Virus record (IMG/VR): IMGVR_UViG_2531839237_000023
Reading direction: 5' to 3' (one strand)
DNA from: a virus
Lineage: Duplodnaviria; Heunggongvirae; Uroviricota; Caudoviricetes
DNA length: 4,395 nt
Both the position numbers and the translations under genes were made by a program. The notes beneath the pieces are model-generated. The model was not told where the DNA came from. It saw only the letters and a list, made by a program, of their open reading frames with translations, and ran no database searches. Below are positions 429 through 4,395 of this stretch, one piece after another. Within the stretch, counting starts at the first letter, position 1. Each line of letters begins with the position of its first letter.

Positions 429-1478
429 GTGCGGGTATTACTTCGACCTGTTCCGGTACCGGAACTTGGGGTGGTGGTCCTTAAACCAGGCCGTGAATCC
501 ATGCAGGTATTCCATAACCCTCGAGTGCTTGTGGAGCCGGAGCCGAAAAGCATGCGCGGTCTGCCGTCCGGCATCGTCCCTGCCGTTCGCCAGCCGCTGG
601 CGGAGGATAAATCATTACTGCCGTTTTTCAGCAATGAGCGAGTGATTCGTGCTGCTGGTGGCGCTGGCGCACTGTCTGACTGGTTACTGCGCCATGTTAA
701 ATCCTGCCAGTGGCCACATGGCGATTATCATCACAGTGAAACCGTTATTCACCGTTATGGTACCGGCGCAATGGTGTTGTGCTGGCACTGCGACAACCAG
801 TTGCGTGACCAGACCTCCGAATCACTTGAGCAACTTGCTCACCAAAACCTGTCAGCATGGATGATTGACGTCATTCGTCACGCAATGAATGGCACACAGG
901 AGCGTGAATTATCGCTGGCTGAATTATCCTGGTGGGCGGCCTGCAATCAGGTGGTGGATGCACTACCTGAGGCAGTAGCGCGTCGTTCGCTGGGATTACC
1001 AGCGGAAAAAATCCGCTCCGTATACCGTGAGAGTGACATCGTACCGGGAGAACAGACAGCCATCAGCATACTGAAGCAGCGCACAAAAAATATTGCGCTG
1101 CCACTTCACGTCCACCAGCAACAAAATCCACCACAGAAAAAAACGGTTGTCAGTATCGCCGTTGATCCGGAGTCTCCTGAATCGTTCATGAGGCGGCCTA
1201 AACGTTGCCGCTGGGTTAATGAGAAATACACGCGCTGGGTAAAGACACAGCCGTGTGCGTGTTGTGGTAAGCCTGCTGACGATCCGCATCACCTGATTGG
1301 TCATGGTCAGGGGGGAATGGGGACAAAGGCCCACGATATTTTCACGCTACCGTTGTGCCGGGAGCACCACAACGAACTTCATGCAGACCCGCTGGAGTTT
1401 GAGAAAAAGTACGGCTCTCAGATTGAGTTAATTTTTCGTTTTCTTGATCACGCCTTTGCGACTGGCGTGCTCGGGTAA
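429..1478 (+). CDS. DUF968-like lambdoid prophage protein (YdfU-like), 349 aa, with two Cys/His-rich HNH-like modules
   Basis: Long ORF from the track. GTG start at 429 is preceded by GGAGG (420-424); alternative ATG starts at 501 and 552 (the latter with GGAG at 539-542). C-terminal motif CACCGKPADDPHHLIGHG...CREHHNELH and an internal CQWPHGDYHH...CWHCDN module resemble HNH/zinc-finger-type nuclease motifs. Position immediately upstream of rusA and Q is typical of this family. Family name is recalled, not searched. Confidence 0.75.
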   Translation: MRVLLRPVPVPELGVVVLKPGRESMQVFHNPRVLVEPEPKSMRGLPSGIVPAVRQPLAEDKSLLPFFSNERVIRAAGGAGALSDWLLRHVKSCQWPHGDYHHSETVIHRYGTGAMVLCWHCDNQLRDQTSESLEQLAHQNLSAWMIDVIRHAMNGTQERELSLAELSWWAACNQVVDALPEAVARRSLGLPAEKIRSVYRESDIVPGEQTAISILKQRTKNIALPLHVHQQQNPPQKKTVVSIAVDPESPESFMRRPKRCRWVNEKYTRWVKTQPCACCGKPADDPHHLIGHGQGGMGTKAHDIFTLPLCREHHNELHADPLEFEKKYGSQIELIFRFLDHAFATGVLG

Positions 1479-1490
1479 AAGAGGTGACTG

Positions 1491-1862
1491 ATGCTCATAG
1501 ATTTGGTTTTACCTTACCCGCCGACGGTGAACACTTACTGGCGACGCCGTGGCAGCACATATTTTGTATCAAAAGCCGGGGAGCGTTATCGCCGGGCAGT
1601 GGTGCTTATTGTTCGCCAGCAGCGACTGAAATTAAGCCTGTCCGGACGGCTGGCAATAAAAATTATTGCAGAGCCACCGGATAAGCGTCGTCGTGACCTG
1701 GACAACATTCTGAAAGCACCGCTGGATGCGCTGACGCATGCGGAAGTGCTCATTGATGACGAGCAGTTTGATGAAATCAATATTGTGCGCGGTCAGCCTG
1801 TGCCAGGTGGACGGCTGGGCGTGAAGATTTACGAAATCAGAGGTGGTAACGATGGCGCGTGA
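1491..1862 (+). CDS. rusA: Crossover junction endodeoxyribonuclease RusA (Holliday junction resolvase), 123 aa
   Basis: Translation shows RusA hallmarks: [15 protein letters not shown] near the N-terminus, the acidic catalytic block [30 protein letters not shown], and [11 protein letters not shown] near the C-terminus, closely matching E. coli RusA as I recall it. SD GAGGTG at 1481-1486, ATG at 1491. Confidence 0.93.
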
Positions 1863-2223: not shown

Positions 2224-2314
2224 GGATATATAGTGATGAGGGTTATGTTTTCTGTGTTTATAATTAACATGTTTATTTTTTGATGGTCATGTATTGTGGA
2301 AGGTAGATAAAATG

Positions 2315-2343
2315 TTGCCTGGTGAATTGAAAATATTGATAAT
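2315..2343 (+). promoter_or_regulatory. Candidate sigma70 promoter upstream of the CPBP gene (-35 TTGCCT 2315-2320, 17-bp spacer, -10 GATAAT 2338-2343); possibly the prophage late promoter PR'
   Basis: Hexamers read directly from sequence, 4/6 and 5/6 matches to consensus with optimal spacing. A perfect TATAAT also occurs at 2259-2264 but lacks a good -35. The Q-to-CPBP intergenic region 2224-2374 is very AT-rich. Which element, if any, is PR' with its Q-utilisation site cannot be decided from sequence. Confidence 0.3.
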
Positions 2344-2374
2344 CAATCTTCATCATTAAATAAAAGGAGTGCTT

Positions 2375-3193
2375 ATGTGGATTGTGTTAGTACTGTCACT
2401 GTCAACTCTCAGTTGGCATAAGGTAGTGGCTTTTTCATTGTTGACGGTGTCTGTTGTCCTGGCTGTGCTTAATGATATTATTGATTGGTCGGTGTTATTT
2501 TTTGTTGCTACAATCGTTTTTTTTATTATTTTGAAGTTCAACTGGAAATATAACGCCTGGGCTAAATCTATATATGAAGTTGGCATAGTTTTATCAGCCA
2601 TAGCATTATTTTTCCATCTATGGCCAGGGTTTCACAATCCTGTAGTGCTAAATTCTGTTACTGTTGGCCCTCAAAGTACTCCCTATACAATGTATTTTAA
2701 TTTTGATAAAGCGCTGGTGCCATTTTTGTTAGTCCTGTGTACATCTTCTTTGTTTAAAAAAGAAGTAAAATCAGAAGTGTCTTTGTGGAAGTGGGGGGCT
2801 CTGTCGCTCTCTGTTCCTCTTATCCTGTTTTTGGCTGTTTTTTTTGGTGGATTAAAGCCAGAGATTCATTTTCCTGAGTGGTTGCCAGAGTTTATATTGG
2901 CTAATTTGTTTTTTGTGTCTCTGGCAGAGGAATCATTATTTAGAGGGTATATTCAATCACGGCTATCAGAAGTAACGTCTCCATTGGTTGCATTAATTGT
3001 GGCGGCTTTGTTGTTTGGTTTTTATCACTATTCAGGTGGTGCTTTACTTGTATTATTTGCCACGTTATCTGGTGTTGTGTATGGATTGTCATGGATGTGG
3101 AGTGGGCGTTTGTGGGTTGCCACCCTTTTCCATTTTGGTTTGAATCTGTGTCACTTGTTATTCTTTACCTATCCATTTTTAAAACATAATTGA
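2375..3193 (+). CDS. CPBP family intramembrane glutamic metalloprotease (CAAX protease / Abi family), 272 aa, polytopic membrane protein
   Basis: SD AAGGAG at 2364-2369 with ATG at 2375 (the track's GTG at 2369 sits too close to the SD). Protein is highly hydrophobic with multiple predicted TM segments and carries the three CPBP motifs in canonical order: EESLFR (motif 1, EExxxR), FGFYH (motif 2, FxxxH), HFGLN (motif 3, HxxxN). The gene is much more AT-rich than the upstream phage genes. Confidence 0.85.
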   Translation: MWIVLVLSLSTLSWHKVVAFSLLTVSVVLAVLNDIIDWSVLFFVATIVFFIILKFNWKYNAWAKSIYEVGIVLSAIALFFHLWPGFHNPVVLNSVTVGPQSTPYTMYFNFDKALVPFLLVLCTSSLFKKEVKSEVSLWKWGALSLSVPLILFLAVFFGGLKPEIHFPEWLPEFILANLFFVSLAEESLFRGYIQSRLSEVTSPLVALIVAALLFGFYHYSGGALLVLFATLSGVVYGLSWMWSGRLWVATLFHFGLNLCHLLFFTYPFLKHN

Positions 3194-3273: not shown

Positions 3274-3287
3274 TTTACGTACGTAAA
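3274..3287. repeat. Perfect 14-bp palindrome TTTACGTACGTAAA; nearby shorter inverted repeat TGCAT-N7-ATGCA (3247-3263)
   Basis: Read directly; the sequence equals its own reverse complement. Located in the 286-bp intergenic region between the CPBP gene and the small winged-helix gene. Candidate dimeric-regulator operator; function unknown. Confidence 0.3.
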
Positions 3288-3334
3288 AAATCAGGTATGC
3301 TGTTAAGAGTGGTTATTTCGCCGCATAGCTTGAC

Positions 3335-3356
3335 CCCGCCTCTGAGCGGGTTTTTT
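3335..3356 (+). terminator. Candidate rho-independent terminator (5-bp all-GC stem CCCGC/GCGGG, 6-nt loop, T6 tail) downstream of the CPBP gene
   Basis: Stem 3335-3339 / 3346-3350, loop CTCTGA, then TTTTTT 3351-3356. Short stem, so moderate confidence. A second CCCGC at 3360-3364 could alternatively pair with the GCGGG arm. Confidence 0.5.
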
Positions 3357-3479
3357 GTGCCCGCAAAGTAGCGCAGTGCGTTAAATGTGCTGGTAGTTAT
3401 TAATACAGGTCTTTCAGCTTGCTGGCTTTTTCGACAAGAGTTATTGGTGTGTCACGTTAACCGGAAAGGGTAAAAAGAC

Positions 3480-3677
3480 ATGCTGAAACAGCAGGATATG
3501 ACAGAAACCGCCAGAGTTGTGTTTGATGAATTAAGCGTCACCGAACCGGCGACAGTCGGGGAGATTGCGCAGAATACTTACCTTTCACGCGAACGCTGCC
3601 AGTTAATACTGACCCAGCTGGTTATGGCGGGTCTGGCAGACTATCAGTTCGGTTGTTACAGACGCCTTCAGTCCTGA
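3480..3677 (+). CDS. Small (65 aa) putative winged-helix DNA-binding protein (PapI/FaeA-like pattern)
   Basis: ORF from the track. SD-like GGAAAGGG at 3463-3470 before ATG 3480. Sequence pattern TVGEIAQNTYLSRERCQLILTQLVMAGLA resembles small winged-helix regulators. Stop codon TGA (3675-3677) lies inside a strong terminator hairpin. Family assignment is inference. Confidence 0.55.
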   Translation: MLKQQDMTETARVVFDELSVTEPATVGEIAQNTYLSRERCQLILTQLVMAGLADYQFGCYRRLQS

Positions 3678-3691
3678 AGGCTTTTTTATTT
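3664..3691 (+). terminator. Rho-independent terminator: 7-bp stem GCCTTCA/TGAAGGC, 4-nt loop GTCC, tail TTTTTTATTT
   Basis: Perfect inverted repeat 3664-3670 / 3675-3681 followed by T-run 3682-3687; + strand specific (no T-run on the complement). Immediately terminates the 65-aa ORF. Confidence 0.8.
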
Positions 3692-3711
3692 GTGGTAAAT
3701 GGGCGGCTGGT

Positions 3712-3719
3712 GGGGGGGG
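3712..3719. repeat. Homopolymeric G8 tract within a G-rich block (GGGCGGCTGGTGGGGGGGGCGG, 3701-3722)
   Basis: Read directly. Lies between the terminator at 3664-3691 and the candidate promoter of the AraC-family gene. This is a potential slipped-strand mispairing site. Confidence 0.9.
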
Positions 3720-3747
3720 CGGCACCTGTCAGTCCTTTGCTTATGTG

Positions 3748-3778
3748 TTGATGATAATTTACCTTTTGGGGCTATAAT
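3748..3778 (+). promoter_or_regulatory. Candidate sigma70 promoter for the AraC-family gene (perfect -10 TATAAT 3773-3778; weak -35 TTGATG 3748-3753 at 19-bp spacing)
   Basis: Hexamers read directly. The spacer is suboptimal and there is no extended -10 TG. Location is appropriate, about 35 bp upstream of the ATG at 3814. Confidence 0.3.
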
Positions 3779-3813
3779 TGAGCTAACCAATTGCTAATGA
3801 AAGTAAAATTATA

Positions 3814-4395
3814 ATGGCTGTTGTCTGTTCAGTTATCATGGTTTGCTCCCCAATTAATATTTTTCTTGAAAAGGATACGTTGTCACTTAAGCCAGGCTCA
3901 GTCGTTCTGGCCACCAAATGCATCAGGGAGCTTTTCCTTATGCATTATGGCAAAGTTAAAATTGTCGATATAAGCGAATCCGTCGTAAGTCAATATCTGG
4001 AAAGTCAGCATAAGCTGACGAGGACTCGTCTGACTGACATTCCGCTTTACCTGTTGCTGGAACCCAACAATCCTGCGTTGGCTGCGGCTTTAATTACCAG
4101 CCAGGGATTTTCCGGAGAGGTCACGGATATGTTTCTTATGATGGCCTGCCTGTCTCTGTTTGAAACAGATGAACGGATATTATTATTTTTAAGTGGATGT
4201 TTATCCAGCATAAGTGCCAAAGTCAGGGCGATAATTCAGACAGATATATCAGCAAGCTGGACGCTTGGTGCGATTGCTCTACAGTTGCATATGAGTGAGA
4301 GTTTGTTAAAGATAAAACTGAAAAATGAAGGGGGCATGTTCAGTCGCTTGTTGCTGGAAGAGCGGATGCGTGTTGCTGTAAATATGTTATGTTCC
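3814..4395 (+). CDS. AraC/XylS-family transcriptional regulator, YdeO/AppY/GadX-like subgroup; 3' end truncated by window edge (194 codons present)
   Basis: Frame open from 3787 to the window end with no stop, checked codon by codon. N-terminus MAVVCSVIMVCS resembles the YdeO/AppY N-termini as recalled (M..VCSV..). C-terminal portion SISAKVRAIIQTDISASWTLGAIALQLHMSESLLKIKLKNEGGMFSRLLLEERMRVAVNML is the first HTH of an AraC-type DNA-binding domain. Alternative start ATG 3838. AT-rich with a weak RBS, typical of horizontally acquired AraC regulators. Confidence 0.8.
   Translation, partial: MAVVCSVIMVCSPINIFLEKDTLSLKPGSVVLATKCIRELFLMHYGKVKIVDISESVVSQYLESQHKLTRTRLTDIPLYLLLEPNNPALAAALITSQGFSGEVTDMFLMMACLSLFETDERILLFLSGCLSSISAKVRAIIQTDISASWTLGAIALQLHMSESLLKIKLKNEGGMFSRLLLEERMRVAVNMLCS

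Follow-up and report, generated by a model that had tools for sequence, protein, structure and literature searches.

Which gene, if any, is served by a small winged-helix protein that a prophage encodes between a membrane protease and a transcriptional regulator? The question is raised by ORF65, a gene for a protein of 65 amino acids (aa) in a stretch of 4395 bases of viral DNA (IMG/VR record IMGVR_UViG_2531839237_000023, Caudoviricetes), which was analysed over its whole length and is here called the window. The window comes from a Qin-like lambdoid prophage of the type found in enterohaemorrhagic Escherichia coli (EHEC) and covers a late-early junction; it is 99% identical to O145:H28 RM12581 and relatives, and ORF65 stands in it between a gene for a CPBP/Rce1-like membrane protease and one for an AraC-family regulator. 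An initial annotation, made from the letters of the sequence, had taken this placement as a sign that ORF65 is the regulatory partner of one of the two. We found that in lambdoid and related enterobacterial prophages ORF65 is part of a cassette composed of a winged-helix protein of 63-67 aa, a leader of ~150 nucleotides (nt) and a methyltransferase of the M.EcoGII type, and that in the window it is probably not a co-regulator of its neighbours.

ORF65 is a genuine, conserved prophage gene under purifying selection. An in-frame stop two codons 5' of the ATG makes this the only reading of the frame, and both the open reading frame (ORF) and its Shine-Dalgarno-like sequence are present as first described (Table 1); in the homologs a purine-rich block followed by AAAAGAC-ATG is kept. 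Frameshifts or stops in relatives had been named as grounds for dropping the gene; an intact ORF of 63-67 aa was present in 34 of the 36 loci checked, which span Escherichia, Salmonella, Klebsiella, Citrobacter, Kluyvera, Buttiauxella, Hafnia, Proteus, Providencia, Mangrovibacter, Mixta and Plesiomonas. Over 302 pairs, the median ratio of non-synonymous to synonymous substitutions (dN/dS) was 0.27. Many synonymous codons, up to six per residue, encode the invariant block CQLILTQL, which points to a constraint on the protein and not on the DNA. The gene occurs in 2268 of 5426 complete E. coli genomes (42%). A search of 5.8 billion proteins returned 332 relatives, every one from Enterobacterales or their phages, and the family is narrow, since only 61 were found when 1.84 billion cluster representatives were scanned exhaustively with HMMER. 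The relatives are named 'hypothetical' or 'TrmB family transcriptional regulator' in their sources, and the RefSeq counterpart (WP_000917737.1, 98% identity) is labelled 'hypothetical protein'. ORF65 matched PHROG 331, of unknown function, with E = 3e-37, its residues 1-64 aligning to profile positions 35-98 of 111; it is already catalogued there but uncharacterised, and as a small winged-helix gene it looks ordinary.

What is constant around ORF65 is the gene that follows it. In a species-level sample made up of contigs from one genome per species, 28 of the 29 loci with downstream sequence carry a methyltransferase gene 142-154 nt after ORF65, and this arrangement is kept across four types of the Q antiterminator and varied holin and endolysin types. 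Looking from the methyltransferase side, ORF65 lies just upstream in 78 of 79 viral contigs; in the lone exception (L118, 900-1510) a deletion has left only the final seven codons of ORF65, now fused to Q, and has spared the leader and the methyltransferase. The phages P27, SfV (orf47), mEp460, Hafnia yong2 and 1720a-02 all have a homolog after Q, ~150 nt before a methyltransferase of ~350 aa, and the 1720a-02 copy is 98.5% identical to that of the window. Among the 2268 ORF65-carrying E. coli genomes, the junction with the methyltransferase was found in 2002 and a junction with the AraC gene in 725; assuming that each carrier has one type or the other, inclusion-exclusion gives at least 459 genomes with both. 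In one further locus (L023, 6001-6305) ORF65 is truncated at its N-terminus, the leader is present and the methyltransferase is deleted at its start codon. Downstream of the methyltransferase there is a terminator, followed by holin or tRNA/stx genes; an endonuclease gene was not seen in the cassette.

The methyltransferase belongs to family PF01555 and has 350-352 aa in related loci; its DPPY (residue 35) and FMGSG (residue 310) stand in the motif order of the beta class. By its size, motif order and prophage location, and through the relative in 1720a-02, it can be likened to M.EcoGII and is probably an enzyme of that type. M.EcoGII is described as a prophage-borne, adenine-non-specific methyltransferase of 349 aa that is silent in its host and does harm once it is expressed; the enzyme of phage 1720a-02 is called 'very similar' to it (Murray et al. 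2018, PMC5778455). A methylome paper on O111 describes such prophage enzymes as 'nonspecific' M.EcoGI/GII homologs, inactive in lysogens. In the passages of the M.EcoGII paper (PMC5778455) that were searched, neither the upstream small gene nor the leader is mentioned, and the word 'upstream' does not occur. The M.EcoGII and M.EcoGI loci offer a partner alike in size, motif order and location, and the 1720a-02 enzyme has ORF65 directly upstream; the window differs from them in that the enzyme gene is gone.

The spacer between ORF65 and the methyltransferase, ~150 nt long (L004:4193-4350 in SfV), is highly conserved with many compensatory changes, and we consider it a candidate for a new cis-regulatory RNA. 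A covariance model (R1) recovered this leader in all 36 loci searched (L003-L038), with scores of 107-172 bits; the set comprised 33 methyltransferase loci, two loci where the downstream sequence is missing (L007, L024) and L023, which has lost the methyltransferase. In the predicted structure, fold 2, the pairing AAUGGGC/GCUCAU closes a hairpin of 12-14 bp, a long-range helix GGUCA-AAGC/GCUU-UGAUC ends 3 nt before the methyltransferase AUG, and GGCCCAC/GUGAGCC pair around a small hairpin. Of the cells of fold 2, 90% were paired, against 31-41% with slid partners, and 14 pairs change on both sides; none of 500 shuffles reached this. The long-range helix would cover positions -4 to -14 (11 nt) of the methyltransferase AUG, with 93.7% pairing and three compensatory pairs. 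An alternative that partly excludes it, fold 1, is a three-way junction that frees the start region; it had 85.5% pairing and 17 double-change pairs, the alignment having been fitted to it, by which the pairing statistics are inflated. Fold 1 was rejected as the main structure, since its energy is unfavourable in Proteus/Providencia and fold 2 is usually the more stable of the two: in 27 of 35 sequences fold 2 has the lower energy (median -6.9 kcal/mol). Fold 1 is possible as an alternative state of the leader. A leader-encoded peptide (the 32-aa ORF MGGWW..., 3699-3797) was also considered and rejected, because the P2 region of one locus may be 1-3 nt longer or shorter than that of another, and the reading frame is lost; the leader is non-coding, as its length differences are not multiples of three. 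When the SfV cassette was searched with Rfam, weak terminator-driven leader matches appeared at the tR' position only, and nothing in the methyltransferase leader.

Before the leader stands the hairpin to which the initial annotation had drawn attention, a stop codon embedded in the 7-bp stem of a terminator. Both the terminator scan and folding confirmed it: the hairpin has seven pairs (four of them G-C) and a 4-nt loop, and the TGA of ORF65 (3675-3677) forms the first three bases of its 3' arm. The segment folds at -10.8 kcal/mol (z = -2.4; matched by 2 of 200 shuffles), and six terminator-like sites were counted in the region, against 2.0 +/- 1.7 in shuffles. A hairpin spanning the ORF65 stop was found in 28 of 36 homologous loci, where about 15 different coding 5' arms are each paired with their own non-coding 3' arm; this recurrence with matched arm variants argues that the hairpin is not due to chance. 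It is not present in any of the eight Proteus/Providencia loci, and a T-rich tail follows it in 14 loci only. The stop-codon hairpin is conserved, and in the window lineage it is a full terminator. Since P27, 1720a-02 and E. albertii have the strong terminator of the window type as well, ahead of their methyltransferase leader, it belongs to the cassette and not to the AraC junction.

The region upstream of ORF65 has two parts, the first of which changes with the type of Q. The window carries a candidate late promoter pR', TTTACG-16 nt-TATGCT (3274-3301), which includes a 14-bp palindrome, TTTACGTACGTAAA, at 3274-3287, and is followed by a conserved initially transcribed block, GTTAAGAGTGGT, at 3302-3313. 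The palindrome block, the TATnnT hexamer and GTTAAGAGTGGT are limited to loci with the Q type of the window (L003, L007, L019, L030, L032, L038), and in the upstream alignment the other Q types have other sequences at this position. A terminator stands 75-130 nt before ORF65 in nearly all of the 34 aligned loci, with differing stems (less clear in L019 and L024), and in the SfV record the one at the tR' position is marked as rho-independent. As the upstream sequence follows the Q type, the segment 3274-3356 looks like a unit of late promoter pR', Q-utilisation region and tR'. The palindrome had been offered as a binding target for ORF65; the proposal is not supported, given that the palindrome tracks the Q antiterminator and lies inside the apparent pR'. 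On the pR' reading, ORF65 would be the first late gene, behind a Q-dependent promoter and terminator, and its bracketing by terminators would follow from its place at the head of a Q-antiterminated late operon. The first description as a 'stand-alone expression unit' holds in part: the bracketing stands, and a promoter of ORF65's own is a possibility. The short promoter-terminator unit before ORF65 resembles the pR'-tR' units of lambda 6S RNA and StxS, and would yield a short RNA of ~48 nt.

The second part is an element that does not vary. Of 122 loci, 112 contain one and only one copy of TTGCTG-N10-13-AGAGTTA, always at a distance of ~36 nt from the ORF65 ATG and in taxa from Escherichia to Plesiomonas, and it is present as a single copy in the whole 37-kb SfV genome. 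Promoter, operator and RNA element are all conceivable roles for it. As a promoter it can be read in a weak sigma-70-like form, TTGCTG-17 nt-TATTGG (3419-3447) in the window and TTGCTG-17-TAYNTG in general, with a -10 hexamer that has no usual final T; sigma-54 and standard sigma-70 readings were rejected for misfits of spacing or of the -10 hexamer. A multi-site operator was rejected as well, the element being single-copy both per locus and per SfV genome. Related sequences were noted in SfV: CAGAGTTAC lies 13 nt before the methyltransferase start, and CAGAGTTAY, allowing one mismatch, has 19 copies in the genome (L122) against 9.8 +/- 3.0 in shuffles, mostly on the minus strand, scattered and probably compositional.

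How, then, did ORF65 of the window come to precede an AraC gene? Sequence comparison indicates that in the window lineage the methyltransferase and the 3' two-thirds of the leader have been swapped for an AraC gene with its own promoter. The homology to methyltransferase-linked copies stops at ~3714 or ~3750, inside the leader, and the promoter-like site of the AraC gene begins right at the break; it is this coincidence that argues for a replacement. The leader model scored 15.4 bits only on the window. What remains of the leader folds no better than shuffles (z = -0.47) and was rejected as a functional hairpin. Its G-run at 3711-3722 differs among the AraC-context copies (GGTGGGGGGGGCGG in the window and L121, GGTGGGGGTTAGCGG in L001, GGTGGGTGTTAGCGG in L119, GGTGGGGGGGCGA in L120), as expected of a hairpin no longer under selection. 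The same downstream block of AraC gene and tRNA genes was found in five AraC-context loci, one of them in an Stx2k phage, and in all full loci the tRNAs after the AraC gene are Ile-Arg(-Arg). The AraC protein matched the NCBIfam model YdeO with E = 1.8e-20, below its cut-off, and appears to be of the YdeO/Psr-like prophage kind, which includes PsrA, PsrB and PatE (review PMC10877973).

With respect to the protein itself, the initial annotation had proposed a PapI/FaeA-like winged helix, of which the fold was confirmed and the family was not. The structure prediction that it had suggested gave an AlphaFold2 model (39-sequence alignment, predicted local distance difference test score 89.6) with helices at residues 7-17, 26-33 and 37-49, a short strand between the first two and a beta hairpin at 53-62; the topology is H1-b1-H2-H3-b2-wing-b3, and solved winged helices are close structural neighbours. 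These include winged helices that bind RNA hairpins (SelB-SECIS), and also non-DNA-binding dimerisation domains of S-adenosylmethionine (SAM)-dependent methyltransferases. Helix 3 is invariant across homologs, and C40 is the sole invariant Cys. In a sequence search of the PDB no solved homolog was found, the best match being a winged-helix segment of DsyB (E = 0.007); the viral structures of BFVD returned generic winged helices only, and NCBIfam no match.

None of the familiar winged-helix families could be assigned. For PapI/FaeA there was no Pfam match at E <= 1 and no member among the top 50-60 structural neighbours; PapI/FaeA genes sit in fimbrial operons controlled by Dam and Lrp, and all ORF65 loci are prophage late regions between Q and lysis genes. 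TrmB (PF01978), a name that many homologs bear at NCBI, scored 17.6 bits against a cut-off of 25.6 (E = 0.0034), and other sub-threshold Pfam matches were comparable (DprA_WH, MarR_2, HTH_20, HTH_65, Rrf2). TrmB proteins combine an N-terminal winged helix with a C-terminal effector (sugar)-binding domain, and the latter is ruled out by length in ORF65 and in its homologs. Membership in PapI/FaeA, TrmB or MarR was accordingly rejected, each being below threshold or without a match. From the N-terminal domains of TrmB, MarR, ArsR and IclR proteins, from PapI/FaeA and from Zalpha domains, ORF65 differs in having no ligand-binding or dimerisation domain. In Zalpha domains an Asn and a Tyr of helix 3 and a Trp of the wing contact Z-form nucleic acid; by inspection, we take the corresponding positions of ORF65 to be Q41, T45 and L63. 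With PADLOC, the CPBP and AraC genes drew no match and ORF65 an insignificant one (SWIM_XIII), and a role in defence or anti-defence was rejected for want of a meaningful family match.

What could a winged helix do in front of such an enzyme? Com of phage Mu, a protein of 62 aa with a Cys4 zinc finger, is the translational activator of mom, a toxic late gene for DNA adenine modification. In the ORF65 family, though not in the window, a protein of similar size is likewise encoded immediately upstream of a toxic late adenine-modifying enzyme, the start region of the methyltransferase is locked in a predicted RNA helix, and control would be layered between transcription termination or activation and translation. 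We give about even chances to the reading in which ORF65 serves the methyltransferase cassette as its dedicated regulator, much as Com serves mom, and has been orphaned in the window. This appears the most likely role because M.EcoGII is toxic and silent in lysogens (PMC5778455). A dedicated regulator would license methyltransferase synthesis in the late lytic phase only, acting on the leader RNA or on the invariant element upstream of ORF65, in a manner resembling the opening by Com of the translation-blocking structure before mom. The stop-codon terminator would bar transcription not modified by Q from the downstream gene and, together with the start-sequestering fold of the leader, would add further layers of safety. 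The orphaned ORF65 of the window may still serve, in trans, the methyltransferase cassettes of other prophages in the same cell, and its terminator would now insulate the AraC gene from late-operon transcription. A more specific form, which we hold as a tentative possibility, is an undescribed module in which the stand-alone winged helix binds a bistable leader, as RNA or as DNA, and unlocks translation of, or read-through into, the toxic methyltransferase gene during lytic growth, the window copy being a trans-acting orphan.

Several observations weigh against a dedicated regulator. ORF65 is intact in all five AraC-context loci despite the loss of the methyltransferase, which suggests a role that does not need the enzyme in cis; its copies in the window and in L119, the most divergent of them, differ by ten synonymous and three non-synonymous codons, and recombination with methyltransferase-linked copies could account for the intact frames. 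Conversely, in L033 (6001-6070) ORF65 has a stop at codon 23, with methyltransferase and leader kept. Methyltransferases 98-100% identical to the SfV enzyme (L039-L118, IMG/VR) pair with either of two ORF65 types that share ~50% identity. The types have an invariant N-terminus and helix 3 and diverge in the wing and in helices 1-2; as near-identical enzymes and leaders go with either type, ORF65 is mosaic. Most homologs have an isoelectric point (pI) of 4.6-6.5, and this acidity is atypical for a nucleic-acid binder. Moreover, the likeness to Com is one of position and not of protein, since ORF65 is a winged helix with no relation to Com in sequence or fold and has one invariant Cys in place of the Cys4 zinc finger; the enzyme is a beta-class SAM methyltransferase and not Mom, and RNA binding by ORF65 is putative. 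The inflation of the leader statistics noted above counts on the same side, and the case for a regulatory role is made from linkage and analogy. Other known systems fit partially. Controller (C) proteins of restriction-modification systems are also small DNA-binding-type proteins encoded just upstream of a modification-related gene that needs timing; they are of the Xre helix-turn-helix type, precede a restriction gene and bind C-boxes, whereas the ORF65 cassette has another fold and no restriction gene. With phage morons ORF65 shares the bracketing by terminators, with a weak promoter candidate at 3419-3447, but it is constant in the cassette and not sporadic relative to the methyltransferase.

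Some of these observations would find an explanation if ORF65 worked at the protein level. It might assist the methyltransferase as a partner or chaperone or inhibit it, or it might blunt the host response to massive adenine methylation, for example by inhibition of a methylation-dependent restriction enzyme of the type of Mrr, which restricts DNA containing N6-methyladenine. The tight linkage to the methyltransferase applies equally to such a role, and the matches to winged-helix dimerisation domains of SAM methyltransferases, DsyB among them, fit it; persistence without the enzyme in cis would fit an anti-host function. The acidic pI, the survival of ORF65 without the enzyme and the free mixing of ORF65 types make it a serious rival, which we nevertheless consider rather unlikely: ORF65 type and methyltransferase sequence do not co-vary, neither PADLOC nor anti-defence families gave a meaningful match, and the conserved leader RNA and the invariant upstream element would be left unexplained. 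The generic character of the fold, common to many transcription factors, and the survival of ORF65 after the replacement would also suit a general DNA-binding factor of the late phase, linked to the methyltransferase merely by its position in the variable slot between Q and lysis genes. That a spacing of 142-154 nt and a leader are kept over four Q types and several lysis modules is hard to obtain from position alone, and the invariant element, single-copy in SfV, gives no sign of a multi-site regulon, so that we regard a general factor as distinctly improbable.

The partnership originally proposed, in which ORF65 would be a co-regulator or anti-repressor acting with the AraC regulator or the CPBP protease gene, is the least supported option, and we hold it to be very unlikely. 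In its favour, the block of ORF65, AraC gene and tRNA genes is held together in the 725 E. coli genomes mentioned above, on several prophage backbones, with ORF65 intact. Outside the EHEC-type lineage, however, none of the 31 species-level loci has the AraC gene, and the methyltransferase occupies its slot; the AraC gene is a lineage-specific replacement, and it has a strong promoter match of its own past the terminator. The ORF65 family, with homologs in Proteus, Providencia and Plesiomonas, long predates the junction. Nor is CPBP a constant neighbour: the five AraC-context loci have four different genes upstream (CPBP, a 237-aa hypothetical, a divergent gene for a nucleoid-associated protein and a DUF1133 protein), and CPBP is found there in the window-type prophage only, the other three elsewhere.

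The remaining features of the window are collected in Table 1. The start of the Q gene is GTG 1843 in the mechanical ORF list and ATG 1852 in RefSeq relatives (a coding sequence of 372 nt); with the latter, Q overlaps the end of RusA by 11 nt. The CPBP gene (2224-3193 region) follows Q and precedes the putative pR', and is not part of the late operon proper; it has three overlapping promoter-like sites upstream, at 2284-2356. As none of the other AraC-context prophages examined has it, it is a separate insertion. The CPBP and AraC genes are the true later additions in the window. At the left edge there is a clean intrinsic terminator (52-76, CCCGC-TTCG-GCGGG plus T-run), downstream of the position of hokD in the matching RM12581 locus. 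An Rfam scan of the whole window at E <= 1 gave no match, and the Pas small RNAs do not map to the ORF65 region; they map beside the sialate esterase, holin and lysozyme genes.

Table 1. Coordinates of genes and sequence elements in the window
Feature	Position	Strand	Remarks
rem-like small gene			start of gene order
DUF968 gene	429-1478		
RusA gene	1491-1862		
PF06530-type Q antiterminator gene	ends 2223		
CPBP/Rce1-like membrane protease gene	2369-3193		
Candidate late promoter pR'	3274-3313	+	shared only by same-Q-type loci
tR'-like intrinsic terminator	3335-3356	+	CCCGCC-TCTGAG-CGGG plus T6; terminator scan
Invariant element CTTGCTG-N10-CAAGAGTTA	3418-3447	+	candidate promoter or operator of the cassette
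Shine-Dalgarno-like GGAAAGGG	3463-3470	+	9 nt before ORF65 ATG; moderate match
ORF65	3480-3677	+	ATG to TGA, 65 aa
Intrinsic terminator	3664-3691	+	GCCTTCA-GTCC-TGAAGGC (3664-3681) then TTTTTTATTT
Leader remnant, 5' domain (AAUGGGC - long hairpin - GCUUAU)	3698-3745	+	alignment, megablast end points
Promoter-like site ATGATA-16 nt-TATAAT	3751-3778	+	best promoter match in scan, 10/12
YdeO/GadX-like AraC-family gene, 5' part	3814-4395	+	first 194 codons; 237 aa in full-length relatives

The locus can now be read anew, with ORF65 as a left-over of a methyltransferase cassette and not as the partner of a virulence-related AraC regulator (Psr/PatE-like) or of the CPBP protease, and the cassette in related loci is a more interesting object than the orphaned copy of the window. 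The association of ORF65 with M.EcoGII-type enzymes matters because M.EcoGII has found wide use as a tool, and because it is toxic and stays silent in lysogens. Together with the covarying leader, it provides a testable hypothesis for how phages keep such a methyltransferase off until lysis. If the bistable-leader module tentatively put forward above were true, it would explain the silence of M.EcoGII in its native host, and it would constitute a functional analogue of Com-Mom made from unrelated parts.

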